A DNA stretch of 64,000 bases from Candidatus Woesebacteria bacterium RIFCSPHIGHO2_01_FULL_39_23 (lineage in GTDB: Bacteria > Patescibacteriota > Microgenomatia > UBA8517): NCBI GenBank assembly GCA_001792305.1, contig MGGH01000023.1, positions 34,347 through 98,346 of the forward strand. Reading direction: 5' to 3'. Shown here in pieces: positions 42,208 to 63,213 of the stretch. Numbering within the stretch: position 1 is the stretch's first letter; every line of letters starts with the position of its first letter. The position numbers were made by a program, and so were the translations under genes. Below the pieces are notes generated by a model, which saw only the letters and a program-made list of their open reading frames with translations, searched no databases and was not told the origin of the DNA.

Positions 42208-43062
42208 ATGGGTGGTCAACTTAAGCCAATTATTGATGGGAGTAAATCGGTATTGCTTCTTTTGCCGGTTAATCCCACTTTTGATACTGTTGCCGGAGGA
42301 CTTGGGATGTATTTGGCCTTGCAATCTCAAAAAGAAGTAAGCATCGCCTGCGAAACGCCCATGACTGTCGAACATAATCGTCTGGTTGGGGTAAATAAGA
42401 TATCCTCGGAAGCTGGCGATAAGAACTTAGTGATAAGATTTAAAAATTACCACGCAAACAATATCGAAAGGGTTAGCTACGATATTGAAAACGGAGAGTT
42501 TCGTTTAACAGTGATACCAAAACCCCGTAACAGCGCCCCTCAAAGAGAACACGTTCATTTGACGTACTCCGGGGTGGCTGCCTCTACACTGTTTCTTATT
42601 GGTGGATCTCACGAGGAACACTTTCCCATGCTTAAGTCTTCGGACGCGGCTAATCTTAAGAAAGTTCATATAGGTGTTCGAAGTTTAAATGTTACAGGTG
42701 GTCAAAATATTATGTCTCTAGCCAGACCCGCTTCATCTGTGTCAGAGCTTGTTGTTCACTTGCTTCGCGAAGCCGAATTTGGCTTGGAGGCGGATGTCGC
42801 GACGAATTTACTCATGGGAATTGAAGAGGAAACTAATAGTTTTACAACACAAGAGGTAACATCCGAGACTTTTGAGATAGTTTCGTATCTTTTGAAATCG
42901 GGTGGACAGAGAAAACCCAAAAATCTTCCGGATTCTAGATTTTTCCCGCCAGGTGCGATTCCCGGAGAGAAACTCCATCCATTGGAGGAAGCGGAAAAAG
43001 GAGATATCCCCAAAGCCTGGATGGAAAAACCCGCGGTTTATAAAGGAACGAGTATCAGTTAG
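42208..43062 (+). CDS. Hypothetical protein, possibly a degenerate DHH/DHHA1 (NrnA/CnpB-like) phosphoesterase
   Basis: Positional analog of the DHH gene that follows infB/rbfA in other bacteria. Motifs are weak (FDTVAGG, GGSHEEH, LKSGGQ). Confidence 0.3.
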   Translation: MGGQLKPIIDGSKSVLLLLPVNPTFDTVAGGLGMYLALQSQKEVSIACETPMTVEHNRLVGVNKISSEAGDKNLVIRFKNYHANNIERVSYDIENGEFRLTVIPKPRNSAPQREHVHLTYSGVAASTLFLIGGSHEEHFPMLKSSDAANLKKVHIGVRSLNVTGGQNIMSLARPASSVSELVVHLLREAEFGLEADVATNLLMGIEEETNSFTTQEVTSETFEIVSYLLKSGGQRKPKNLPDSRFFPPGAIPGEKLHPLEEAEKGDIPKAWMEKPAVYKGTSIS

Positions 43063-43104
43063 TTTGAATTTAACTTAATCTGGGAAAATCTCTCAACTAT
43101 ACAA

Positions 43105-43437
43105 CTATAAAAGCGACGATAGTTTTCTTGTGTCTTTCAAGTTATCGCAATAGCTTTCGTAACGCTTAATTGCTTTATCGCTTTTTTCAATAATCCGGCT
43201 TACTTTATCCGCAATATTATCTCTTCTTTGTTTCAAAGCCTGCATTTCTTGAACGCTGAAAGCTTTGTATTCAGTTTCGCCTGAAACCTCATCCAGTAAA
43301 AAATTAAATGAGCGCTCCGCCGTACGAAGTTGGGCAACGAATTTCGGTTCCGGCGCGTTTTCGGCCTTATCGACCAATCTTTCGAGAAGAGAAATGTAGT
43401 TTTCCAAAAATTTCCGATAAGAGTCTATTTTATCCAT
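43105..43437 (-). CDS. Hypothetical alpha-helical protein (island ORF 1)
   Basis: 110 aa, no recognisable family. Confidence 0.4.
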   Translation of the reverse strand: MDKIDSYRKFLENYISLLERLVDKAENAPEPKFVAQLRTAERSFNFLLDEVSGETEYKAFSVQEMQALKQRRDNIADKVSRIIEKSDKAIKRYESYCDNLKDTRKLSSLL

Positions 43438-43520
43438 GCAGCAACATAATAAAGTTTTACGGGGTGGAAATCAATATTGATATGCTTTAAAATTTAGTCA
43501 ATTGTTTAGCGTAGACGGCT

Positions 43521-44276
43521 ATGAGTTCAAAATACGTTCAGTTTGTTTTTCCCCAATTTCCCAAACGCTCACTGGGTGGAAAACATGGTTCCGAATTTAT
43601 CGACTCATTAAAAAAACTACTTCCCAAAAAAGCTAAAACAAGTTTATTTCTACCTTTCCCTAAAAACTCCTCAACACCTGTATTTCAAGAAAGTCCAACC
43701 ACGGCCGAGATTTCCCCAGCGATTATCAGTAGCGAGCTTGGTTATGTCCAAGTTAGTGTTGGCTTAGATAAAAACGATTTATTTGGAAGAGTATTTTCGG
43801 TCAGAGATGGAGTTTCCGACGGCCTGCACCGTCTTAATTTTTATCTTATTTTCTCGTTTAATGATATCGTTCATTATTCCAGTCAGACCAACCCACGGTT
43901 CTTTGACAAAGGGGGCATGAGTCCCTTAAGAATAAATCCGCCAGTTCGGGAGTATGCAGTAATTTCAGACAAGGTTAACAATAAGGATTATCATTTTCCA
44001 CCCGTTCCCGGCTTGGCAGAATTCTCCGATTCCACATTCGACGCCGAAGCTTACAGTTTGGAATATATGGATGCCAGATACGGCACATCATCAATAATGC
44101 ATGAAACTATCAAGTCGGGATTATATTGTTTAACTGTCGAACTGGATTTTTCCCCCAAAAGTCAGCTCCTAGCCTACTCCAAGCAATTTGAAGAAATTTT
44201 AATACCCCTGTTTGGAGATGATTACGTTCTGGTTCCCAAACCCCCCCAATCCGAGTTTTCTAAAATCACTCCCTAA
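43521..44276 (+). CDS. Hypothetical protein (island ORF 2)
   Basis: 251 aa, no recognisable motifs. Confidence 0.4.
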   Translation: MSSKYVQFVFPQFPKRSLGGKHGSEFIDSLKKLLPKKAKTSLFLPFPKNSSTPVFQESPTTAEISPAIISSELGYVQVSVGLDKNDLFGRVFSVRDGVSDGLHRLNFYLIFSFNDIVHYSSQTNPRFFDKGGMSPLRINPPVREYAVISDKVNNKDYHFPPVPGLAEFSDSTFDAEAYSLEYMDARYGTSSIMHETIKSGLYCLTVELDFSPKSQLLAYSKQFEEILIPLFGDDYVLVPKPPQSEFSKITP

Positions 44277-44327
44277 GTGCCACCCTAGTTGTTTTATAAC
44301 ATAAGTAGTGAAATAATTTGATAGGGA

Positions 44328-44591
44328 GTGAAAGTGATGGAAGGAGGAGACGCGGGAGTTAGGGAAGGTTTGGGGAGTGGTCAAGAAACTGCTCGTGAAA
44401 CTCGGGCGAGGGTTGACGCTGGAGCGAGGTTGAGAGATGCCGCGGATTTTGATCTCAGTCGGGCTCAAGCACGGCTCGCTAAACCTGACTTGAATGCGAC
44501 AATTAGAGTTGGCCGAACGCCAACTGAAACGGGTAAACTGCAAAGATTATCTCAAGCTCTTAAGATGTTGGTTCAAGGAAATAGAGGCTAG
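44328..44591 (+). CDS. Hypothetical Arg/Ala-rich low-complexity ORF in a locally GC-rich segment. Coding status is uncertain; it could be a structured RNA.
   Basis: 87 aa. MKVMEGGDAGVREGLGSGQETARETRARVDAGARLRDAADFDLSRAQARLAK. Local GC is roughly 55-58%. Confidence 0.25.
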   Translation: MKVMEGGDAGVREGLGSGQETARETRARVDAGARLRDAADFDLSRAQARLAKPDLNATIRVGRTPTETGKLQRLSQALKMLVQGNRG

Positions 44592-44638
44592 GATTTTGTT
44601 CGTGATCTTTAAGCAGCGGGCTATACTTTAAAATGTAA

Positions 44639-44983
44639 ATGGCTTACGATATCCATATCACTCGCAGAAATAATTGGTTTGACAAAGAAGGGCCGGTTAT
44701 TTCTGAAGAAGAATGGAAAAGGCTAGTCGGTGAGGATTCTGAATTAAAACTTACAGATTATGCCGAGTCCTCACTGAAAAATAAACCGTTTGAAATAGTA
44801 AGACTAAAAAAACACCTCATGGGGCTGTTGAGTGACCCAATAACAAAAAAAGACTTTTATTTTGTATATTCTCCAGAGAAAATAACTGTGTCGGATGCTG
44901 AAAGGAATGTCGTTGAAAAAATGAAGCAGGTTGCTCAAAAGTTGGATGCAAAAGTACAGGGAGATGAAGGAGAACTCTATTAA
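44639..44983 (+). CDS. Hypothetical protein (island ORF 4)
   Basis: 114 aa. MAYDIHITRRNNWFDKEGPVISEEEWKRLVGEDSEL. Confidence 0.4.
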   Translation: MAYDIHITRRNNWFDKEGPVISEEEWKRLVGEDSELKLTDYAESSLKNKPFEIVRLKKHLMGLLSDPITKKDFYFVYSPEKITVSDAERNVVEKMKQVAQKLDAKVQGDEGELY

Positions 44984-45068
44984 AGATCTGATTTGATACG
45001 ACCTGGAAAATTTTAGCCGAAAGGTTGGGTCGGTGTGAAAGTGCGGAGTAAGGTTGATATTTAAGGCA

Positions 45069-45548
45069 CTAGAATTTATAAACAACTCGCATCAGGTGAG
45101 TTGGCGTATCTTCAGCTTGCGAACCGATAATTCTTCTTAAGGCTCTGCGAGCCGGGTTTGTTTCAGGATTTTTGTCGCTGTGTTCACCGTCAATTGTTCC
45201 GTGATTTCGTAAAGCTAGAGTGGTTATCTCTCCTGAAGCTTCTATAATCAGATTGAAATCATCTCCATACAGTTGTACTTCTCTGCGTGCTATTCCCTGC
45301 ATTTTATCTCTTTGAATACCTGTAAGTATCTGTTCGCTGGCCATTGCACCTACTATGTCTCCTTCTCTAAATTCGTCTTCCTGAATGCCTTGATACAATT
45401 CTGCTTCGTCTGGGTCATGAATTTGGATTTCGGCCCCTTTTTCTCTCCACTCCGGAATAATTCCAACCACGGCACTCTCAAAAGTAACTGCGTTTTGCTG
45501 GCTCTCAACGTGAGGTAAACTGAATTCTCCCGACGAATCTAGATTCAT
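45069..45548 (-). CDS. Hypothetical protein (island ORF 5)
   Basis: 159 aa. Overlaps the upstream ORF 6 by 4 nt, so probably an operon. Confidence 0.4.
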   Translation of the reverse strand: MNLDSSGEFSLPHVESQQNAVTFESAVVGIIPEWREKGAEIQIHDPDEAELYQGIQEDEFREGDIVGAMASEQILTGIQRDKMQGIARREVQLYGDDFNLIIEASGEITTLALRNHGTIDGEHSDKNPETNPARRALRRIIGSQAEDTPTHLMRVVYKF

Positions 45549-46339
45549 TGTAGTGAAGATTTTAGTGTCTCAAGACTTTTGATTCTGACATCTGTCGTGT
45601 TGATGGTGTGCATTAACCTACCCCGTTCTGTTGTCGATTGCAGAGCTTTTAGCCGTAGGATTTCAGCGTTAATTGTTAAAATTTGTCCTGTTTCAGTCAT
45701 ACCTTGTTTTGATGCCTTAAGCCTTGCGATTTCTTGTTTTAACCTTTTGTATTCGTCATCTCCGGGTAGTTTTCCGATTGGTTTTAGGCTACCCCTTGCC
45801 GCATCAAATCTTGCTTTTAATTCCCCAATCTCTCTTTCAATCTCCAGTTTTACTGGTTCACGATTTCCCATTCTGAGGTTTGATGCCATATTGGTTAATC
45901 GTGCAAGTTCTGTTTTTGCGGCACGATCATTTGGGTCCATTACCGAGTCCGCCAAGGCTTGAAGCCGTCTTTGTTCCAAATAACTTTCCGGGGTAGATAA
46001 ATTAGGAAGAGGTCTGCGTTCTGATGCTCTAGGCTGTGATACTTCCGGCTGTCTGCTTAAATCGACCACATGTCTTTCTCCACCTTCATAATAGTAGCCC
46101 TTCCCTCTTCTCTCGTCGTCATCAAAGGGAGTTACATTTACTCGTTTCCCGCCGATTACCATCTCGACTCTTTCTGTTGGTATTGAACCAGCGGCTGATG
46201 GGGCACCCGATCTTGGGGATTCAACCACTGAAGGTCGGGGAGTTACTTCTCTTATTTGATCGCCTCTGACCTCGACTGTTATAGGTCTGGGTGGGCCTTT
46301 TGTTGGGTCCCATTCTGTTTGAGAATCGATCGTCGACAT
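45545..46339 (-). CDS. Hypothetical Pro/Arg/Glu-rich coiled-coil protein (island ORF 6)
   Basis: 264 aa. Higher GC than the window background. Confidence 0.4.
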   Translation of the reverse strand: MSTIDSQTEWDPTKGPPRPITVEVRGDQIREVTPRPSVVESPRSGAPSAAGSIPTERVEMVIGGKRVNVTPFDDDERRGKGYYYEGGERHVVDLSRQPEVSQPRASERRPLPNLSTPESYLEQRRLQALADSVMDPNDRAAKTELARLTNMASNLRMGNREPVKLEIEREIGELKARFDAARGSLKPIGKLPGDDEYKRLKQEIARLKASKQGMTETGQILTINAEILRLKALQSTTERGRLMHTINTTDVRIKSLETLKSSLQ

Positions 46340-46487
46340 ATTTTATGCTTTATAAGCGACTGTACCAATTGGTTGATTAGAATTATAAACTATTTTGTAT
46401 TTTTAAAAAAGTGTGATATCATTCCAAGTGTTGTTTGACTAGGGATACGGACTGTCCGACCTACTACTTGGTTTTACAACAATAAAA

Positions 46488-46754
46488 ATGGCATTATCAA
46501 AGGACGAAAAGCTTGATATTATAAAAAAGTTTGCTATTGAAAAAGGCGACACTGGTTCTCCTGAAGTACAAGTGGCTCTTCTTTCGGCTCAGATAGAAAA
46601 GCTTGCCAAGCATTTGAAAGATCACGCTAAAGATGTACACTCAAGAAGAGGACTTTTGTCGATGGTCGCCAAAAGAAGGAGGCTTCTTAATTACCTTCTT
46701 AAAAAAGACGAGGCTCGCTACAAAGAGCTTGTCAAGAAGCTTAAATTGAAGTAA
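46488..46754 (+). CDS. rpsO: 30S ribosomal protein S15
   Basis: [57 protein letters not shown]. Confidence 0.9.
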
Positions 46755-46762
46755 TAATTTTT

Positions 46763-49024
46763 TTGATGAAAGAATTAAAAGAAAGTATTGAAATTGGAGG
46801 GAAAACGCTCACCCTCTCTACAGGAAAATTGGCGGGTCAGTCAAATGGTGCTGTAGTTGTTTCTATTGGTGAGACAGTAGTACTATGCACAGCTGTTTCC
46901 TCGGTTATGGATACTGACCGCGACTATTTTCCCTTGACTGTTGACTACATGGAGAGGCTTTATGCAGGGGGTAGAATTAAGGGAAGCCGTTGGATAAAAA
47001 GGGAAGGCAGGCCCACCGATGAAGAAATATTGACCTCAAGGCTTATTGACCGCTCCATAAGGCCGCTCTTCCCCTACGCTTATAAAAAAGAAGTGCAAGT
47101 GACTGCAACTGTTTTATCAGTCGATTTGGTCAACAGTCCTGACATTGCAGCCTGTATAGGTGCCTCAACGGCTATAGTGATTTCTGATATTCCGTTTAAA
47201 GAGCCAGTTGTGACCGTAAGAGTTGGCAAGGTCAACGACAACCTTACTCTTTTCCCGACGGTTGAAGAAATAAACAAGGGAGAATTGGATGTAACTGTTA
47301 GTGTTACTAAAAATGCTGTTGTGATGATCGAGGCTGGAGCCAAAGAGGTCGACGAAAAGACTATTGCGAAGGCAATCGACTTAGCCGTTAGCGAAGGCGG
47401 AAAAGTTATTGACCTTATCGAAAAGTTTGCCAAAAAAGCAGGGAGTGCCAAACAGAAGTACTCCAACGATAAAGTTGACTTGGAAACTAAAAAAAGAATC
47501 GAGAAAGTGGTTGGCAACAAACTTGCCTCCCTTGTGACCAAAATGGCGACAAAAGAAGGGAGTTTTGCTGATTATGAACAACTAAGAAATGCGGTTGTAG
47601 ACGAGTTTGGAAATGAAGAAAAAAGTAAAGCAATTGAGGGTTTTGAAGATCTTTTTAAAGAAAGGGTTAGGCAAATGATTTTAGCTGGAAAGCGGCCTGA
47701 CGGCCGTAACCACGACCAAATTAGAGATTTAACCAGCGAAGTGTCAATTTTGCCAAGGACTCATGGCTCGGCAGTTTTTGCCAGAGGCCAGACACAAGTC
47801 TTAAGTGTTACTACTCTTGGATCGCATACTTTCGAGCAGTTGCTGGAAAGCGCTGAGGGTGAGGAGTCCAAACGCTACATTCATCATTACTCTATGCCTC
47901 CTTACGCAACGGGAGAAGTGGGAAAGGTTGGTTATCCGAATAGGCGGGAAATTGGCCACGGAGCACTTGCTGAGCGCGCCTTGATACCTGTGATTCCATC
48001 AGAAGAAGACTTTCCCTACACAATTAGAGTGGTTTCGGAAGTAACAAGCTCTAACGGCTCAACTTCAATGGCCTCGGTTAGTGGTAGCACGTTGTCATTG
48101 ATGGATGCGGGAGTTCCAATAACTAACCCCGTATCTGGGATCGCAATGGGGCTTGTTATCGAAAACGACAAAAAATACGCCGTCCTGACTGATATTGTGG
48201 GAATTGAAGATATTAGTGGTGACATGGATTTTAAAGTAGCGGGCACCAAAAACGGAATTACTGCGCTGCAATTGGATGTGAAAACTTTAAAGTTGACATT
48301 ACCGATTCTCGAGGCCGCTTTAAAACAAGCAAGGAAAGCAAGAGAGAAGATTTTGGAAGCGATGCTTGCGACTTTAGCTGAGCCAAGAAAGCAGGTTTCT
48401 AAGTTTGCACCCAAGATAAAAGTCATAAAGATCGATCCTTTCAAAATTGGAGAGCTTATTGGCCCTGGTGGAAAGACTATCAAAGGCATAATCGCGAGAA
48501 CAGGTGCTGATGTGGATGTTGAGGATGACGGCACAGTGCATGTAACTGCAGTTGATGAATCTGCAATGCTTAAAGCAATTGATGAAGTAAATAAGCTTAC
48601 CAAAGAAATTTTGCCAAACGAAATTTATGAAGGCCAGGTCAAAAGAGTGGAAAATTATGGAGCGTTTGTGGAGATTCTGCCGGGAAGAGAAGGATTGGTT
48701 CATGTTTCAGATATGTCGGAAGCTTTTGTTAAGGATCCCTCAACCCTGGTTAAAGTTGGCGACAAAGTAAGCGTGCGAGTCAAAGGGATTGATAATTTAG
48801 GGAGGCTTAATCTTTCAATGGTGATGGATCCCTCGTTTGATAAGCAGAAAGAAGAAAGGGATCACGACAGAAGCCGAGGTAGGAGTGGAATGGACAGGGG
48901 AAGGGGTCGCGAGGAGAGGTTTGGAAGAAGAAGGGATGGTGGTTTCAGGGACCGTACTGGGGGACCACATTTTCCCGCCAGTAACCTACTCGAACCCAAA
49001 GAGCGCAGAAACTTCCGAGAATAA
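46763..49024 (+). CDS. pnp: Polyribonucleotide nucleotidyltransferase (PNPase)
   Basis: Two RNase PH domains, KH (GPGGKTIKGI) and S1 domains, and an Arg/Gly-rich tail. Confidence 0.9.
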   Translation: MMKELKESIEIGGKTLTLSTGKLAGQSNGAVVVSIGETVVLCTAVSSVMDTDRDYFPLTVDYMERLYAGGRIKGSRWIKREGRPTDEEILTSRLIDRSIRPLFPYAYKKEVQVTATVLSVDLVNSPDIAACIGASTAIVISDIPFKEPVVTVRVGKVNDNLTLFPTVEEINKGELDVTVSVTKNAVVMIEAGAKEVDEKTIAKAIDLAVSEGGKVIDLIEKFAKKAGSAKQKYSNDKVDLETKKRIEKVVGNKLASLVTKMATKEGSFADYEQLRNAVVDEFGNEEKSKAIEGFEDLFKERVRQMILAGKRPDGRNHDQIRDLTSEVSILPRTHGSAVFARGQTQVLSVTTLGSHTFEQLLESAEGEESKRYIHHYSMPPYATGEVGKVGYPNRREIGHGALAERALIPVIPSEEDFPYTIRVVSEVTSSNGSTSMASVSGSTLSLMDAGVPITNPVSGIAMGLVIENDKKYAVLTDIVGIEDISGDMDFKVAGTKNGITALQLDVKTLKLTLPILEAALKQARKAREKILEAMLATLAEPRKQVSKFAPKIKVIKIDPFKIGELIGPGGKTIKGIIARTGADVDVEDDGTVHVTAVDESAMLKAIDEVNKLTKEILPNEIYEGQVKRVENYGAFVEILPGREGLVHVSDMSEAFVKDPSTLVKVGDKVSVRVKGIDNLGRLNLSMVMDPSFDKQKEERDHDRSRGRSGMDRGRGREERFGRRRDGGFRDRTGGPHFPASNLLEPKERRNFRE

Positions 49025-49050
49025 ACTTCTTTGTGTTAATATAATTTGAA

Positions 49051-50097
49051 GTGGCATCAAACGTACTTAGTGAACTGAATAAAATTGGTGAAAGTGTAAA
49101 GTCAGCTGATATTCCGCAGGGGCTTCAAGATGACATTTTGACCAGAATCAGCCAGCTTGGCAATCTTGTCGAGTCGTCGACTTTTCTGCCGGAGTTTGAT
49201 CGCTTGAATAGTTATATTGACTGGGTAGTAAATCTTCCCTGGAATAAAAAAAGCGAGGAAGTGCTTGATTTGGTCCGCGCCAGAGAGATTTTGGACAAAA
49301 ACCACTACGGTTTAGACGAAATTAAAGATAGAGTTTTGGAATATATGTCCGTAATGAAGCTAAATCAGGAAAACAAAGAAAATATTGCTCATGCACCCAT
49401 TTTGTGTTTTGTGGGCTTGGTCGGAACTGGTAAAACTACAATAGCCAAATCAATAGCCGAGGCAATGGGTAGGCGCTTTGTGAGAATTCCTTTCGGAGGA
49501 ATGGGGGACCCTCTCGACCTTCGCGGGCAGTCTCGGATGCACCCGGAGGCAGAACCTGGAAAAGTTATAAAAGCAGTAAGGTCTGCTGGGACTAGAAATC
49601 CAGTGATACTTTTAGATGAAATTGACAGAGTTACAGATGAAGGAAGATCGTCGATTATGGGTGTTTTGGTTGAGCTTCTTGATCCCCAGCAGAATTATGC
49701 GTTTGTTGATCATTATATGGATTATCCTTTTGACCTCTCCGATGCTTTGTTTATAGCTACAGCCAACAACACGACAAAAATTTCGACTGCAGTCTTGGAC
49801 AGGCTTGAGCCTCTGATGATGCCGTCCTACACAGATAATGAAAAAATGACAATAGGCCAAAAGTACATTTTTCCAAGGGTAATGAAGGAATCTGGAGTTC
49901 CAGAAAACGCTTTGACAATTGCGGATGATATATGGCCAAATATTGTTCGGCCTCTTGGATTTGATGCGGGGATCCGGACATTACAGCGAACAATTGAAGG
50001 AATTGTCAGGAAAGCCGCAAAAGAAATTGTTGAAGGTAGAAAAGAGAGGATTGAAGTAAAAAAAGATAACGTCAAATATTATCTACCACCGTTGTAA
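49051..50097 (+). CDS. Lon-like AAA+ ATPase module lacking the S16 peptidase domain and most of the Lon N-domain
   Basis: DKNHYGLDEIKDRVLEYM...ILCFVGLVGTGKTTIAKSIAEAMGRRFVRI...VILLDEIDRV...FIATANN...LDRLEP aligns with the Lon AAA+ core. The ORF ends at 348 aa and the next gene begins 8 nt later. Confidence 0.65.
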   Translation: MASNVLSELNKIGESVKSADIPQGLQDDILTRISQLGNLVESSTFLPEFDRLNSYIDWVVNLPWNKKSEEVLDLVRAREILDKNHYGLDEIKDRVLEYMSVMKLNQENKENIAHAPILCFVGLVGTGKTTIAKSIAEAMGRRFVRIPFGGMGDPLDLRGQSRMHPEAEPGKVIKAVRSAGTRNPVILLDEIDRVTDEGRSSIMGVLVELLDPQQNYAFVDHYMDYPFDLSDALFIATANNTTKISTAVLDRLEPLMMPSYTDNEKMTIGQKYIFPRVMKESGVPENALTIADDIWPNIVRPLGFDAGIRTLQRTIEGIVRKAAKEIVEGRKERIEVKKDNVKYYLPPL

Positions 50098-50105
50098 TTT
50101 AACAA

Positions 50106-50618
50106 ATGAAAGTAGCGGTATTGTCAGACATACACGATCATATTTGGAACTTGGAAAAAGCAAAAAAAATTATTAAAAAAGAAGGCTCGGGAGCTGTAAT
50201 TTTCTGTGGTGATATGTGTGCTCCCTTTACGACAAGTTTACTATCCGAAACTGGGCTCCCTACGTATACTGTTTGGGGTAATGTTGACGAAGATCACTGG
50301 GCGATGGTTCAAAAAGGAGGGGAGAACCTTATAGCTGTCCCCCTTACACAAGAGTTTCATGAAGTGGAGCTGAATGAGCGTAAAATTGCATTTTGTCACT
50401 ATCCAATGCTTGGAAAGTTGTTGGCTGAAACTAGGTATTACGATGCAGTTTTCCATGGCCATACGCATATGCAGTATCACAAGATGGTTGGAAATACATT
50501 AGTTGCAAACCCAGGAGCGGTTTGTGGAATTGTCAAAGGCCGCGAGGGTTTGGCTAGTTTCATGATTTATGACACCGATAATAACACTGTTCAATTATTT
50601 AAACTAGGCAATGGGTAA
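50106..50618 (+). CDS. Metallophosphoesterase (YfcE/MPP family)
   Basis: VLSDIHDH...FCGDMC...GHTH. Confidence 0.7.
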   Translation: MKVAVLSDIHDHIWNLEKAKKIIKKEGSGAVIFCGDMCAPFTTSLLSETGLPTYTVWGNVDEDHWAMVQKGGENLIAVPLTQEFHEVELNERKIAFCHYPMLGKLLAETRYYDAVFHGHTHMQYHKMVGNTLVANPGAVCGIVKGREGLASFMIYDTDNNTVQLFKLGNG

Positions 50619-51243
50619 AAAAGAAAAACTTGACGAGATAAGAAAAAGAATGAATGAGGATAAAAGTTTGCCTCTGCGGTCAGGTGCCACCCAGCTTGTT
50701 TTCGGTGACGGAAATCCGGAAACTGACATTTTATGTGTTGGTGAAGGACCGGGTTACTTCGAGGATCAAAAGGGTTTGCCTTTTGTGGGGAATGCAGGGA
50801 AATTATTAGATCAGCTGCTTGAGGGAGCCGGGATGACAAGAAAAAATGATGTTTATATAACAAATGTAGTTCACCACCGGCCACCCGAGAACCGTGACCC
50901 TCACCCACAAGAAATAGCCTCATACGGCGTTTATCTGGATGAAATTATTGAGACAATTGATCCCGAAGTTATAATTACTTTGGGTAGATTTTCAATGAAC
51001 AAGTTCCTGCCGAGTGCAAAAATAAGCAGGATTCACGGCCAGGAGCAGGTTTGTAGTTTCAAAGGAAGAGAGGTAATCGTTGTCCCGATGTACCATCCTG
51101 CAGCAGCTCTTCGAAGCAGTGAAGTAATGCTTCAGGAAAGGGAAGATTTCGCTAATTTGCCAAATATCTTGGCTAAGATCAGAAATAAAAAAGACGCTAG
51201 CGATGAACAAAAGAGTGTCGGTGAGCAAATGCAGCTAGTTTAG
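50611..51243 (+). CDS. Uracil-DNA glycosylase, family 4/5 type
   Basis: GEGPGYFEDQKGLPFVGNAGKLLDQLL. Confidence 0.75.
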   Translation: MGKKEKLDEIRKRMNEDKSLPLRSGATQLVFGDGNPETDILCVGEGPGYFEDQKGLPFVGNAGKLLDQLLEGAGMTRKNDVYITNVVHHRPPENRDPHPQEIASYGVYLDEIIETIDPEVIITLGRFSMNKFLPSAKISRIHGQEQVCSFKGREVIVVPMYHPAAALRSSEVMLQEREDFANLPNILAKIRNKKDASDEQKSVGEQMQLV

Positions 51244-51253
51244 AAATTAATAT

Positions 51254-52903
51254 ATGTTACGTTTTATTGTAATATCTGGGACAACCGGGGTAACTGAGAA
51301 TTGTTTTATTTACGAGTGGAACGGTCAAATGCTGATTGTGGATTGTGGAGTGGGATTTCCCGACCCCGAGATGCTTGGGGTGGATCTTGTGATCCCAGAC
51401 TTTACTTATATAAAGAAAAACAAAGAAAAATTAAAAGGTATCCTTATTTCCCACGCCCATGAAGACCACTTAGGGTCATTACCGTTTCTTTTTAAAGAAG
51501 TGGAAGCTCCTATTTACTCGACAAAATTAGTTGCGGGTTTCATTGAAGACAAGTTTGCTGATTACGGTATGAAAATTCCCAAAATAAACGTATTTAATCC
51601 TGAAAGAGACTCCTTTACTGTTGGGCCTTTTAAAATAAATCCTTTTAGAGTTTCTCACTCTGTTCCTGATGGAGTAGGATATTCAATTGACACACCGGTA
51701 GGCAGAATTTTCCATGTCCCTGACTATAAATTTGACTGGACACCTGTCGATGGTAGACCTTTTGATATTTCAAAAGCAGCAGTACTTGCAAGTGGTGGTG
51801 TTTTAGCCTTAGCCTCGGACTGCTTGGGATCAACGACGGAAGGTTATACAAAGTCGGAGAAAGAAATCGAAACAAAAGTTGAAATTATTGCGAAGTCTGC
51901 CTCAAAAAAAATCCTTTTCACGACAATATCCTCCAACATTTCAAGGATTAAACAAGCCTTTAACGTCGCGGCAAAACTTGGTAGAAAAGTAGTAATTGTT
52001 GGCAGATCCATCGAAAAGAAAGTGGAAATTGCTCGAAGGTTAGGTTATTTGGACTATCCGAAAGACTTGATTATTTCACCAAAAGACGCGAAAAGACTTC
52101 CCGAAAATGGTGTGTTTTATGTGATATCGGGTAGCTATGGACAAATTGGTAGTGCTTTGTATAGGGTCGCGATTTCAGATCATCAATTTATTAGTGTTAA
52201 CGCAAATGATGTAGTAATTTTTTCAGGCGATCCTGCTCCTCCCGGATCGAAAGACAATGTGGATTTTGTGGTAGACAGGTTAATTGAGCTTGGGGTCGAC
52301 GTGCATTATTATGATACCCAGGATGATCTTCATGTCTCCGGTCACGGCTCGCAGGAGGACATAAAAACTCTTTTTGGAATTGTTAGGCCAAAATACTTTA
52401 TACCAATAGGGGGTACAATTAGGCACATGCGAGCCTACAAAAGCATAACTCACGATTTCGGGTCTCCTCGAGATAATGTTTTTGAACTAAAAGACGGCGA
52501 AGTACTTGGGATTGACAGTAAGGGTGCGAGACTTCTACCTGAAAAGGTTCCTTCAAAAAGCGTAATGGTTGACGGGCTTGGGGTTGGAGATGTAGGTAAC
52601 ATAGTGCTCCGGGACAGAAATGTTCTTGCCAATGAAGGAGTTGTAATTGTTGTTATAGGGGTTGCTAAAGACACTAAAAAGTTAAATACGACCCCAGATA
52701 TTATTAGTCGTGGATTTGTTTTCAAAGGCGCAAAAGAGTCGCTACTGCGGGATGCCAGCTTTGGTCTAAAAAAAGAGCTTGAGAGAATGAAAGATTTAGA
52801 CGCAAAACTTGCAAGAAATGTAACAATCGATTTTTTGGAAAAGTTTTTCCACAAAAAAATTGCCCGCCACCCCATGATTTTACCAGTCGTAGTTGAAGTT
52901 TAA
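51254..52903 (+). CDS. rnj: Ribonuclease J (MBL/beta-CASP)
   Basis: ISHAHEDHLGSLPFL, a beta-CASP region and a C-terminal domain. 549 aa. Confidence 0.8.
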   Translation: MLRFIVISGTTGVTENCFIYEWNGQMLIVDCGVGFPDPEMLGVDLVIPDFTYIKKNKEKLKGILISHAHEDHLGSLPFLFKEVEAPIYSTKLVAGFIEDKFADYGMKIPKINVFNPERDSFTVGPFKINPFRVSHSVPDGVGYSIDTPVGRIFHVPDYKFDWTPVDGRPFDISKAAVLASGGVLALASDCLGSTTEGYTKSEKEIETKVEIIAKSASKKILFTTISSNISRIKQAFNVAAKLGRKVVIVGRSIEKKVEIARRLGYLDYPKDLIISPKDAKRLPENGVFYVISGSYGQIGSALYRVAISDHQFISVNANDVVIFSGDPAPPGSKDNVDFVVDRLIELGVDVHYYDTQDDLHVSGHGSQEDIKTLFGIVRPKYFIPIGGTIRHMRAYKSITHDFGSPRDNVFELKDGEVLGIDSKGARLLPEKVPSKSVMVDGLGVGDVGNIVLRDRNVLANEGVVIVVIGVAKDTKKLNTTPDIISRGFVFKGAKESLLRDASFGLKKELERMKDLDAKLARNVTIDFLEKFFHKKIARHPMILPVVVEV

Positions 52904-52940
52904 AGATTTTACCTTCAGAGCAGGTAGGCTATAATAGCCC

Positions 52941-53720
52941 TTGATGAAAGTCAAAAGAGCCACTAAAAAACTGGTAATTGTTGCTGACGATTTTGGGTTG
53001 GCCAAGGAAATTAACGAGGGGATACTTCGGGCATGTCGTGAAGGTTTTGTTACCGAATTTTCGTTGATGCTTAAGTCTCCGTCTACCCAACACGCCGTCG
53101 ATATTATTAAAAAATGTAAGCTAAGAGATGTAGGTATTCATCTTCTTTTAGTGGGTTTTGACGATATCAAAAGGATGTTTAGACGAAGTGATTATGTTGA
53201 ACTTTTTAAAAACAAAAACTATCAAGAAATTCAGAAACTGGCAGAATTGGAGTTACGGCTTTTTGAAAAGCTGATAGGCAAAAAACCAACACATATCATA
53301 CCGCAGTATGGTATCCACGGTAATCTAAAACTACTCGATTTTTTGTTGGGATACGCAAAGAAATACGATATACCCATGCGGCTGCCTCGGACAACTTTGG
53401 GAGAAAAATTTGGAGAAAATTATGCAGCAGAGATAATGCTTAGAAGAAGTGGAGTAAGAACGACAAAATATCTTTTTGGACATGTTTTGGGTAGTAATTT
53501 GTTGAGAATTGAGAGAGAGTTTATTGACGAACTTGCCAGAGTAAAAGGTGGTGAAAGCGCCGAGGTTCTTACTCACCCGGGGTATTTTGATGAAGAAGTG
53601 CTTAAGCTCACCTCTTTGAATTATGAACGTGCTCGCGATTTAGCCATGTGTTTAGATAAAAAATTTGAAGAGAAGATATTAAATTTAGGATATCATTTGG
53701 TTAGTTTCAGCCAAATATGA
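52941..53720 (+). CDS. YdjC/ChbG-family carbohydrate deacetylase-like protein (paralog 1)
   Basis: LVIVADDFGLAKEINEGILRACREGFVTEFSLM. Confidence 0.6.
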   Translation: MMKVKRATKKLVIVADDFGLAKEINEGILRACREGFVTEFSLMLKSPSTQHAVDIIKKCKLRDVGIHLLLVGFDDIKRMFRRSDYVELFKNKNYQEIQKLAELELRLFEKLIGKKPTHIIPQYGIHGNLKLLDFLLGYAKKYDIPMRLPRTTLGEKFGENYAAEIMLRRSGVRTTKYLFGHVLGSNLLRIEREFIDELARVKGGESAEVLTHPGYFDEEVLKLTSLNYERARDLAMCLDKKFEEKILNLGYHLVSFSQI

Positions 53721-54520
53721 AGAAGAAATTAATTATAACGGCACATGACTTTGGATACTTTGATTCAATAAACAGAGGAATAATTTACTCTTTGAAACAT
53801 AAGAATAACATAATAACGGAGTTGTCCTTGCTCGCAAACACGCCTGGAAGTTTGGAAGCTGCCAAGTTCTCTAGAAGTACAAAAATCTCAGTAAGTTTGA
53901 ATACTAACTTTACATCTCAAAAACCCCTGTCAAGGGGTGTCCCTTCTCTGGTTGGTAAAGACGGCAACTTTTTGAAAGTAGACACTAAAACATGGGACTT
54001 TTCGGTAATTGATCGATTTAATGAAAAAGACGTTACTAGGGAGCTAGATGCCCAATGGGATTGGTTTACCGAAAATGTTGGCAGGAAACCAAGCGCTATT
54101 TTATCTAAAAAAAACGAGTACGGAGACCCAAAAATACTTATGCCTGTTGTATCGAAAGCAAAAAAAGAGGGTGTACCTATTCGGGTTCCCGTTTGGATGT
54201 GGAAGGAGAATTACGGAGCCCAGTCTTATGTGGAACAGGAAGGGGTTAAATCTACCCAAAACATTTTTCTAGGACTTAAAGAGTGGAAAGGAAAATTTGG
54301 CTATGATTTGATAGAAGATATTGACCAGTTAATTGCTGACATCAAGACTAAAGAAGGTGTATCTGAATTGCTGGTATTTCCAGGATTTGTAGACAAAGAG
54401 CTGATGGATAAAAGTACTTTGAATTGGCAGAGAGGACAATTTTTGCAAGTATTGGACAACAATGAGGTTATTAGTAAAATCAAAGATAACTTCGAACTAA
54501 TTAGTTTTAGGGATTTGTAA
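53717..54520 (+). CDS. YdjC/ChbG-family protein (paralog 2)
   Basis: LIITAHDFGYFDSINRGIIYSLKHKNNIITELSLL. Overlaps paralog 1 by 4 nt. Confidence 0.55.
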   Translation: MKKKLIITAHDFGYFDSINRGIIYSLKHKNNIITELSLLANTPGSLEAAKFSRSTKISVSLNTNFTSQKPLSRGVPSLVGKDGNFLKVDTKTWDFSVIDRFNEKDVTRELDAQWDWFTENVGRKPSAILSKKNEYGDPKILMPVVSKAKKEGVPIRVPVWMWKENYGAQSYVEQEGVKSTQNIFLGLKEWKGKFGYDLIEDIDQLIADIKTKEGVSELLVFPGFVDKELMDKSTLNWQRGQFLQVLDNNEVISKIKDNFELISFRDL

Positions 54521-61041: not shown

Positions 61042-63213
61042 ATGACTTTGATTAAGTTTGGTTTAGATAGTAAAAACCAAGAGTATTATTGGACCCTGAT
61101 CATTGAAGAGGGCTGGGTTCAAAGTGCCATTTGGAAAATAAACGAGGAAAAAGAAGAGTCTGTTGTAGTTGCAACAAGCTCTCCAGTGCGATGGGAAAAC
61201 GATGAAAATCTGATTGAAACCTCGGACACTTCACTTTCGGCAACGATTCAAAATTTGCCTGAAGGCGTACCTGAACCTTCAAAGACTGTATTTGGCGTTC
61301 CTTCGTCGTGGGTAACTGAAGGTCAAATTAGCCCGGGATACTTGGAGAAAATAAGGCACATCTGCTCAAAACTGTCGTTGGAACCGACCGGTTTTGTAGT
61401 TCTTTCTGAAGCTATAGCGTTTTTAGTTAAGACAAAAGAAGAGTCGTCGTTAAACGCTGTTGTTATAGGTTTGTCAGCGAACCACTTAGAGTTGAGCGTT
61501 TTTAAATTCGGTAAACTTGTCGGTAGCACTAAAGTAGCCCGAAGTGTGTCTTTATTTGATGATACGGTAGAAGGCCTTTCAAGATTTGCCGATGGAAGTC
61601 CAATACCATCTCGCTTCTTGATTTACGACGGGAAAGAAGGAGAGCTCGATGAAGCTAAAGAGGCACTCGTTTCTGCTGATTGGTTGGATGGCTTACCTGA
61701 AAATATCAAATTTGTACACTCTCCAAAGGTAGAAACAATTGATCCTAATGATAAGGTTTTAGCAGTGTCCCTTGCCGGGTCATCCGAAATAGGAAAAGTA
61801 AAAAGTGTGGTAATGGGCGCAAAAAGCGAATTTAATGACGAAGAAAAGGATGGTGAAAAAGTAAAAGTTGTGGAAGTTGTAAGTAACATTAAGGAGCCTG
61901 AAGATGAAGTAAGTCCAGAGGAATTTGGATTTGTACGGGACGGTGATGTAAGTGCGAATGTAGACGAAGAAAGGATTAAGGTTTTTGAAAAAAATAAGGC
62001 CTCGATTGTTTCCAGACTTATCGGTTTAAAAGATTTGCTTTCGTTACCTGGGTTTAAGATCAACGCACCAGGTTCGAGAGGAAAAAAGACTTTGGTTTTT
62101 GGTTTTTCTGCATTTTTTGTGATTGTTTTAACCTTTTTGGTTGTTTGGTGGTTTCTTCCCAAAGCTACAGTTAATATATTTATTTCACCCCGCATCTTGC
62201 AGGAAAAAGACACGATTTCAGTTGACATAAATGCAGTGAAAAGCGACCTTGATGCAAAAGTTATTCCTGGTAATGTTAAAAAGGTAAATGTAGACGCTAG
62301 TAAAACGAAATCAACAACTGGCACAAAGGTGATAGGAGACAAAGCAAAAGGAGTAGTAAAACTTCGAAATGGCACGCCTACAGACGTCAGTTTTTCAGCA
62401 GGGACTGTATTGGAAGGGTCCAATGGTCTCAAATTTAGTCTAGATGAATCTGTATCTGTTTCAGCTGCAATTTCCCCTACCTCTCCAGGTAATTCTAGTG
62501 TACCAGTAACTGCCGAAGCTATTGGTTCCGAATATAACTTGGCTAAAGATGAGACTTTTAAAGTAAGCAATTATCCTAAAAGCGAAATTGACGCTATTTC
62601 CGAATCTGATTTCTCAGGTGGAACCAGCCGTGAGATAGCAGCGGTATCTGAGAAAGATGTCAATATTCTTAAAGAAGAGTTGACAGAAGAGTTGAAAAAT
62701 GAGGCGGAAGAGAAAATTAAAAGTATCCTTTTGGCTAACGAAATATTTATCGAGGGAGCAGTTACGTCAAATGTTTTAAAGAGCGATTTTAGCAATAAAG
62801 TTGGAGACGAAGCTTCTACTTTGGAACTTTCCTTGTCTTTGGAGTTTGGTGGTTTGGTTGTTGATGAATTAGAGTTGGATAACCTTGCCTCAAAACTTCT
62901 GGAAGATGAAACCCCACAAGGATTTTTATATAGGAGAGAACAAATAGATAAAACTTTTAAACTCGAAAGTCAAAAAGACAGTATTTATCAAATTACTGTG
63001 AGTTTTGTTGCCAATCTATTGCCGGATTTAGATATCGACGATATAACGTCCAAAATTGTCGGGAAAACACCGAGTGTCGCAAGTGAATTTCTTCAAACTA
63101 TTCCCGGTTTCAAAAGGGCAGAGATACATATAACCCCCAGATTTCCTGGTAAACTTGGTACTTTACCTAAAGTCAAAAATAATATATCTATAGAAGTCTC
63201 AGCGGTAAAATAG
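61042..63213 (+). CDS. Hypothetical bitopic protein: cytoplasmic N-domain, one mid-protein TM helix, large extracellular C-domain (PilM/N- or GspL-like topology?)
   Basis: 723 aa. FGLDSKNQEYYWTLIIEEGWVQSAIWKI, then a TM helix LVFGFSAFFVIVLTFLVVWWFL around residue 360. Confidence 0.35.
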   Translation: MTLIKFGLDSKNQEYYWTLIIEEGWVQSAIWKINEEKEESVVVATSSPVRWENDENLIETSDTSLSATIQNLPEGVPEPSKTVFGVPSSWVTEGQISPGYLEKIRHICSKLSLEPTGFVVLSEAIAFLVKTKEESSLNAVVIGLSANHLELSVFKFGKLVGSTKVARSVSLFDDTVEGLSRFADGSPIPSRFLIYDGKEGELDEAKEALVSADWLDGLPENIKFVHSPKVETIDPNDKVLAVSLAGSSEIGKVKSVVMGAKSEFNDEEKDGEKVKVVEVVSNIKEPEDEVSPEEFGFVRDGDVSANVDEERIKVFEKNKASIVSRLIGLKDLLSLPGFKINAPGSRGKKTLVFGFSAFFVIVLTFLVVWWFLPKATVNIFISPRILQEKDTISVDINAVKSDLDAKVIPGNVKKVNVDASKTKSTTGTKVIGDKAKGVVKLRNGTPTDVSFSAGTVLEGSNGLKFSLDESVSVSAAISPTSPGNSSVPVTAEAIGSEYNLAKDETFKVSNYPKSEIDAISESDFSGGTSREIAAVSEKDVNILKEELTEELKNEAEEKIKSILLANEIFIEGAVTSNVLKSDFSNKVGDEASTLELSLSLEFGGLVVDELELDNLASKLLEDETPQGFLYRREQIDKTFKLESQKDSIYQITVSFVANLLPDLDIDDITSKIVGKTPSVASEFLQTIPGFKRAEIHITPRFPGKLGTLPKVKNNISIEVSAVK

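Follow-up and report, generated by a model that had tools for sequence, protein, structure and literature searches.

The gene at 49051..50097 (+), here called lonAAA, encodes a Lon-type AAA+ ATPase of 348 aa without a protease, and we judge it probable that the product is a Lon-derived, ring-forming, ATP-hydrolysing remodelling ATPase with changed substrate contacts. It would be a functional stand-alone ATPase that arose when LonA cleanly lost its N-terminal substrate-binding domain as well as its S16 peptidase, and its clade is widespread in the Patescibacteria (CPR) lineages sampled. We infer its ATPase activity, oligomeric state and clients from the sequence: lonAAA would assemble into a Lon-like ring, and its ATP hydrolysis would remodel or hold client macromolecules, not feed a protease. 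Since the axial loop is without the Tyr-Ile pincer of Lon and carries conserved acidic residues, the clients or the grip probably differ from those of Lon, and we lean towards basic polypeptide segments as the candidate clients.

The open reading frame starts with GTG, and an in-frame TAA lies seven bases before this start codon. The initial annotation had described a Lon-type AAA+ ORF and this assignment holds: Pfam matches AAA at residues 118-253 (7.7e-18) and Lon_lid at residues 279-332 (3.7e-10), and the best PDB matches are Lon proteases (E = 6e-79 to 1e-68), with the alignments confined to the three-helix bundle and the AAA+ part, e.g. residues 247-573 of 7p6u. The strings it had quoted, DKNHYGLDEIKDRVLEYM, GLVGTGKTT (residues 122-130) and ILLDEID (residues 186-192), were all found. 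Over 49051..50097 (+) the protein thus comprises a three-helix bundle, a nucleotide-binding domain and a lid, without N-domain or S16 peptidase domain, and it matches LonA only over residues ~240-585 of E. coli Lon. Neither Lon_C nor LON_substr_bdg (PF02190) was detected by Pfam in the protein. The model TIGR00763 'lon' covers it over positions 254-575 of 795 only, with a score of 334.9 bits against the curated cut-off of 608.05, and NF008053 gives 255 against a cut-off of 891. When the window, i.e. the whole 64-kb stretch of DNA analysed here, was searched by tblastn with E. coli Lon (a query sequence whose landmark residue numbering agrees), the sole match was Ec residues 273-579 at 49150-50085, and nothing resembling the Lon N-domain (Ec residues 1-235) or the S16 peptidase was found in any frame. 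The earlier statements that the ORF ends at 348 aa before a peptidase domain, and that neither this domain nor the Lon N-domain is encoded here, are therefore borne out by Pfam on the ORF and by tblastn on the window. The 8-nt gap to a metallophosphoesterase was also recovered, as 50097 is the last base of the lonAAA stop codon and Metallophos_2 begins at 50106.

Five features of a LonA protease (TIGR00763, MEROPS S16.001) were tested, and one of them, the Lon-type AAA+ module with lid, is present in lonAAA. The peptidase domain, the N-domain, a score at the curated level and the pore-loop pair Y398-I399 are lacking. Because four of the five defining features fail, lonAAA should not be named a Lon protease.

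The AlphaFold2 monomer model of lonAAA (pLDDT 92, pTM 0.86) consists of three N-terminal helices (2-18, 23-37 and 45-60), a linker helix, a RecA-like α/β domain and a helical lid. The top Foldseek matches of this model are LONP1/LonA chains with TM values of 0.79-0.87, and the whole length of 6n2i, the E. coli Lon(235-584) fragment, is covered by it (TMq 0.86, TMt 0.88). This fragment was made by limited proteolysis of full-length Lon and forms an open helical hexamer in crystals (PMC6722904). Since 6n2i is fully covered, both ends of lonAAA fall at domain boundaries of LonA (E. coli Lon ~240 and ~585), as if the module had been cut out cleanly. The helices of residues 2-60 in the model (49054..49230, +) correspond to the NTD-3H bundle of LonA (alpha8-alpha10). 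Within it, Y55 and W58 are the counterparts of E. coli Lon Y294 and W297, for which a role is described in PMC7239648, and the segment YIDW..PW is conserved in the protease-less family.

The ATPase motifs are complete and invariant. In Walker A (GLVGTGKTT, 49414..49440, +), where K128 is the counterpart of Ec K362, G-x-G-K-T is invariant among 241 members, and so is D-E in Walker B (ILLDEID, 49606..49626, +), where D189/E190 correspond to Ec D423/E424. Sensor-1 (ATANN, N239/N240, Ec N473) and the trans-acting Arg finger (LDRLE, R251 = Ec R484), which lie together in 49756..49809 (+), are likewise invariant in the 241 sequences. Sensor-2 is found in the lid, inside the Pfam Lon_lid match at 279-332, as DAGIRTLQR (49963..49989, +; R309 = Ec R542), with G307 and R309 invariant. 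By alignment to E. coli Lon, the pre-sensor-1 beta-hairpin region LDPQQNYAFVDHYMDYPFDLS at 49678..49740 (+) is of the HCLR-clade type, and D224 in it corresponds to Ec E458. Its residues L210, D211, P212, Q214, N215, F218, D220, P226 and S230 are invariant, so that the segment reads LDPxQN..F.D...P...S throughout; the motif set was scored in 35-241 family sequences. The sequence of lonAAA thus holds the whole residue set of an HCLR-clade AAA+ ATPase, with the pre-sensor-1 hairpin included. Because an Arg finger is useful only between subunits, we infer that lonAAA works as an oligomer. The LonA protease domain contributes to the hexamer, and so a ring is not guaranteed when this domain is missing.

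The short length of lonAAA relative to LonA, and nothing beyond it, would fit a full-length lon gene shortened by frameshift, mis-assembly or decay. We give this artefact or pseudogene reading practically no probability and reject it, since the same form recurs in the relatives and no Lon_C remnant exists in the window. Hundreds of independent assemblies, with four complete or near-complete chromosomes among them (CP011214.1, CP066693.1, CP066686.1 and OY970314.1), show equal length and termini; the catalytic motifs are invariant, nothing like Lon_C follows in any frame, and unrelated conserved genes resume 8 nt after lonAAA.

The spread of this form was evaluated in three independent samples, two lists of relatives and a species scan that took one genome per GTDB species. 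The closest 120 relatives listed (63-97% identity) have 342-355 aa, except for one fragment of 281 aa, and none of them has Lon_C. A further 120 relatives were listed for the distant member P0161, which is 39% identical to lonAAA; they have 342-507 aa and carry AAA and Lon_lid only, and those with a name are Dojkabacteria, Nomurabacteria or 'Patescibacteria group'. Altogether the 240 relatives listed, from Woesebacteria, Gottesmanbacteria, Dojkabacteria, Nomurabacteria and other Patescibacteria, are mostly 342-416 aa long, with a few of up to 507 aa, and all 240 are without Lon_C. Folded extra domains in the longer relatives (P0141, P0135, P0137, P0152, P0164 and P0175) were considered and rejected: their N- and C-terminal extensions are Q/P/S/T-rich and of low complexity, without a Pfam match. 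The species scan gave 67 lonAAA loci, the four chromosomes among them, and each of the 67 carries the same gene of ~345 aa. The sequencing error or frameshift that the initial annotation had proposed to check is therefore excluded, as the same ~348-aa form exists in the 120 close relatives, the 67 GTDB species and the 120 distant relatives; the comparison of domain boundaries with orthologs, also proposed there, shows the truncated form to be common to all relatives listed. Because this cut-down form is conserved across the Patescibacteria (CPR) sampled here, lonAAA is a real Lon derivative and no sequencing artefact.

Many MAG records with a Woesebacteria-type locus are titled 'uncultured Gammaproteobacteria', 'Alphaproteobacteria' or 'Nanoarchaeia archaeon' (for example L011-L013, L016, L018, L025, L027 and L075). 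These titles look wrong, because the gene order and the identity of 63-68% match Woesebacteria/Microgenomates.

Across 1.84 billion cluster representatives, searched exhaustively, the short protease-less forms are distinct from LonA, with its N, A and C domains, and from tandem-AAA+ Lon proteins. A neighbour-joining (NJ) tree was computed from 166 AAA+ modules, 15 of them protease-less representatives, with 100 bootstraps. One bipartition unites all 15, lonAAA among them, with zero Lon_C-bearing sequences (bootstrap 81/100); the support is 93/100 when two unstable sequences are left out, and 96/100 for the six representatives closest to lonAAA. The tandem Lon-like proteins (889-1675 aa; P0121-P0130, P0132-P0134, P0136 and P0138-P0139 among them, one annotated as Candidatus Dependentiae) have two or three Lon-type AAA+ modules, a single Lon_C and no Lon N-domain, and several contain modules whose pore loops or Walker B motifs are degenerate. 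Such a stacked or multi-tier architecture is absent from the Lon classification in PMC9569914.

The part of the motor that was rebuilt is pore loop 1, RGQSRMHPEAEPGK, at 49522..49563 (+), as seen in the alignment to E. coli Lon and 241 family members. The segment reads R158-G-Q-S-R-M-H164-P165-E166-A-E168-P-G-K, in which H164 is the counterpart of Ec Y398, P165 of I399, E166 of G400 and E168 of M402. All full-length Lon representatives inspected have the loop RGHRRTY[IV]GAMPG and retain T-Y-[IVL/M]; in lonAAA the pair Y398-I399 is replaced by M-H-P, with acidic residues at the positions of G400 and M402. In E. coli Lon, Y398 and I399 grip the substrate, and the mutation I399A impairs degradation (PMC7239648). 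The protease-less clade, whose 3H, AAA+ and lid core has ~340-400 aa when disordered extensions are set aside, has its own signature, x-x-x-[DE]-[AS]-E-P-G, of which the last five positions are E166-A167-E168-P169-G170 in lonAAA. At the M402 position all 241 sequences have Glu (E168 in lonAAA), and the G400 position (E166) holds Asp or Glu in 221 of them. The Y398 position is His in 118 of 121 close, Woesebacteria-type sequences, and in the P0161-type group it is S, N, V, Y, A or F, with a Tyr one residue earlier in 43 of 120. With the Y398 position unconstrained and two acidic positions fixed, the alignments indicate that protease loss is accompanied by relaxed selection on the gripping residue and by a new conserved acidic signature. 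By homology, the conserved acidic side chains would point into the axial channel, and the His and Met of the lonAAA loop could contact the substrate. Since Tyr or Phe still occurs at positions 397/398 in roughly half of the distant P0161-type members, polypeptide threading would still be possible for the family.

The initial annotation had suggested two roles for lonAAA, as a chaperone or unfoldase and as the partner of a separately encoded peptidase, and neither could be established. Y398/I399 would be expected in a classical unfoldase as well as in the ATPase half of a split Lon, and so the M-H-P loop with its acidic flanks counts against both. For the second role, lonAAA would be one half of a two-component Lon whose S16 peptidase is encoded elsewhere and binds beneath the ring, in the manner of ClpP with ClpX or HslV with HslU. 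It is consistent with this arrangement that the ATPase motifs and the NTD-3H and PS1-beta-hairpin elements for Lon translocation are kept, that lonAAA ends exactly at the A/P domain boundary, and that some distant members have an aromatic residue in pore loop 1. However, no Lon_C was found in the 64-kb window, and neither Lon_C nor Lon-N occurs within ±10 kb of lonAAA in the 67 GTDB species loci, when searched by tblastn with E. coli Lon and three Lon_C domains; nor does an S16 or other recurrent peptidase stand near lonAAA in 12 further contexts. A database search with the Lon_C of the N-less Lon P0208 gave short unnamed fragments only, with no Patescibacteria names. The Y398-I399 pincer is lost in the lonAAA subfamily, its position is unconstrained across the clade, and no split Lon is described in the literature searched, PMC9569914 included. 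With the pore loop altered and no peptidase nearby, a separately encoded partner is disfavoured, and we regard the split enzyme as quite improbable.

The window contains, in this order, hrcA-grpE-dnaK-dnaJ, nusA, infB, an unknown ORF, a 3-kb insert of unknown ORFs, rpsO (46488-46754, +), pnp (46763-49024, +) with its stop 26 nt before lonAAA, lonAAA itself, and downstream of it the metallophosphoesterase (Metallophos_2, 50106-50618, +), a UDG family gene (50611-51243, +), RNase J (rnj, 51254-52903, +), two YdjC paralogs and ftsK. The spacings between successive genes from pnp to rnj are 26, 8, -8 and 10 nt, all on one strand, and no terminator-like site was found between these genes; around lonAAA such sites occur at chance level and inside genes only. 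Because of the short gaps and the lack of a terminator-like site between the genes, lonAAA is most likely co-transcribed in this genome with rpsO-pnp and the downstream genes through rnj. A structured RNA around lonAAA was rejected, as Rfam gave no match in 43000-54000, and an anti-phage defence role was rejected too, as PADLOC gave weak generic P-loop matches only.

Several other features of the window were noted. A conserved 284-aa protein without a Pfam domain is encoded at 42208-43062, between infB and rpsO, and has the same position in 55 of the 67 loci; in many bacteria the infB-rpsO slot holds rbfA/truB. Between this gene and rpsO, 43100-46450 contains four ORFs without a Pfam match (43521-44276 +, 44639-44983 +, 45069-45548 - and 45545-46339 -), and it is a variable insert in the conserved array, since most relatives have ~1 kb there. 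At 52941-54520, after RNase J and before ftsK, the two YdjC-family paralogs (259 and 267 aa) stand side by side, and the stop of one overlaps the start of the other. A 723-aa protein beside alaS (61042-63213), whose sole Pfam match is a weak one to Baseplate_J-like (E = 1.5e-5), may be a phage-tail-like or contractile-system remnant.

Among the 67 species loci, pnp lies upstream of lonAAA in 64, within 150 nt in 46 of these, and downstream there are rnj in 62, UDG in 50 and the metallophosphoesterase in 31; ftsK is present in 56. The order is the same at 50-52% identity in L003 and L008, with pnp-lonAAA-rnj directly adjacent in L008. A locus labelled Nomurabacteria (L079) has nusA-infB-X-rpsO-pnp-lonAAA-UDG-rnj-ftsK, and in L081 lonAAA-UDG adjoins nusA/infB. 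In L005 lonAAA comes 4.5 kb after pnp, and in Dojkabacteria and some other members it stands in unrelated contexts. In the lineage of P0271 (394 aa; L076 1344-2949) it is divergently adjacent to groES and a probable groEL, which hints at a proteostasis context there. From this distribution, rpsO-pnp-lonAAA-(UDG)-rnj-ftsK appears to be an ancestral array of CPR genes with mixed functions. The 'RNA-metabolism operon' of the initial annotation thus stands as far as the pnp-lonAAA-rnj order is concerned, for which conservation is strong; UDG and ftsK are also part of the array, however, and in several lineages the gene is found elsewhere. The array allows a link of lonAAA to RNA decay and does not prove it.

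Such a link is also raised by the PNPase encoded directly upstream, which ends in a probably disordered Arg/Gly/Asp-rich tail of 62 aa with a pI of ~11 (48836..49021, +). No other stretch of the 64 kb is RG-rich, and the tail contains a conserved short motif, GPHFPAS (48962-48982, +), which takes the form GPHFP[TA]S(R) across relatives (L009-L075) and occurs once per locus. A tail of 30-112 aa is found in 63 of 64 related loci and the GPHFP motif in about 60; in the four Gottesmanbacteria-type loci the RG tail is shorter and lacks the motif, and the PNPase of L005 has no tail. Judged from its sequence, the motif looks like a docking motif for some partner, and we put forward the hypothesis that the tail is linked to lonAAA. 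Taken further, lonAAA would be an accessory ATPase of the RNA-decay machinery that cooperates with PNPase and RNase J; it might, for example, engage the basic RG-rich GPHFP tail or strip basic RNA-binding proteins from RNA. This overlaps with the remodelling-ATPase explanation. It is encouraged by the position of pnp directly upstream (64/67; 46/64 at 150 nt or less) and of rnj downstream (62/67), by the order kept in L003, L008 and L079, by the tail with its motif and by the acidic pore loop. Nevertheless, UDG and ftsK belong to the array as well, which extends the universal nusA-infB-rpsO-pnp operon, and the neighbourhood may thus reflect descent of the gene order and not a shared function; the Dojkabacteria and other members in unrelated contexts, and L005, with lonAAA 4.5 kb from a tail-less PNPase, also stand against it. 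On balance we hold a role in RNA decay to be possible but unlikely. A still bolder and highly doubtful version is that Patescibacteria gave up Lon proteolysis and kept an acidic-channel motor as the ATP-driven part of a minimal RNA-decay assembly that acts on the PNPase tail or RNA-binding proteins. The ancestral array would then be nusA-infB-rpsO-pnp-lonAAA-UDG-rnj, and the motor would dock on or thread the basic RG-rich GPHFP tail of PNPase, or basic RNA-binding proteins. If true, a Lon descendant would have been repurposed from protein degradation to ribonucleoprotein remodelling.

For the preferred reading, in which lonAAA is a remodelling ATPase whatever its clients, the comparison with known systems starts from LonA (endopeptidase La, MEROPS S16, TIGR00763), to which it is 36-44% identical over its whole length. 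Both have the three-helix bundle, the HCLR-type nucleotide-binding domain with the pre-sensor-1 hairpin, the Lon lid, Walker A and B, sensor-1, the Arg finger and sensor-2. Unlike LonA, lonAAA has no N-domain, coiled coil or Ser-Lys peptidase domain, and pore loop 1 is H-P-E-A-E where LonA has Y398-I399-G-A-M. Its nearest physical equivalent is the E. coli Lon(235-584) fragment (PDB 6n2i), whose boundaries match. The LonA helical region and A-domain have been compared to ClpB (PMC6722904), and lonAAA resembles ClpB/Hsp104 NBD2 and other protease-free HCLR remodellers in being a same-clade, presumably ring-forming ATPase without an attached protease. However, ClpB has two AAA+ tiers, an M-domain and aromatic polypeptide-threading pore loops, whereas lonAAA has one tier and its subfamily has no conserved aromatic pore-loop residue. 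ClpX and HslU, like lonAAA, are single-tier AAA+ proteins encoded without a protease domain, but the GYVG pore loops, the peptidase-docking elements and the usually adjacent peptidase genes of these two are not seen for lonAAA. In the classification of Lon, all members are one chain with both an ATPase and a protease domain (PMC9569914). The opposite case is LonC, which has a degenerate ATPase and an active protease (PMC9569914): there too one Lon activity was given up, with the protease kept and the ATPase lost, while the lonAAA family kept the ATPase and lost the protease. In a full-text literature search, neither a protease-less Lon nor any account of Lon in CPR/Patescibacteria was found.

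The finding corrects annotation. The protease-less members are labelled 'AAA family ATPase', 'hypothetical protein', 'ATP-dependent Lon protease' or 'Lon protease' in the databases, and the many under the last two labels cannot be proteases. The protein is small (348 aa), its model is confident, and expression and testing should be straightforward. What the Patescibacteria radiation conserves is the Lon motor by itself, its catalytic residues intact and its substrate-contact loop redesigned, and lonAAA is thus a natural experiment on the capacities of a Lon AAA+ ring without its protease. Patescibacteria are ultrasmall, host-dependent bacteria, and the question is raised how such reduced cells carry out the quality-control and regulatory proteolysis that is done by Lon elsewhere.
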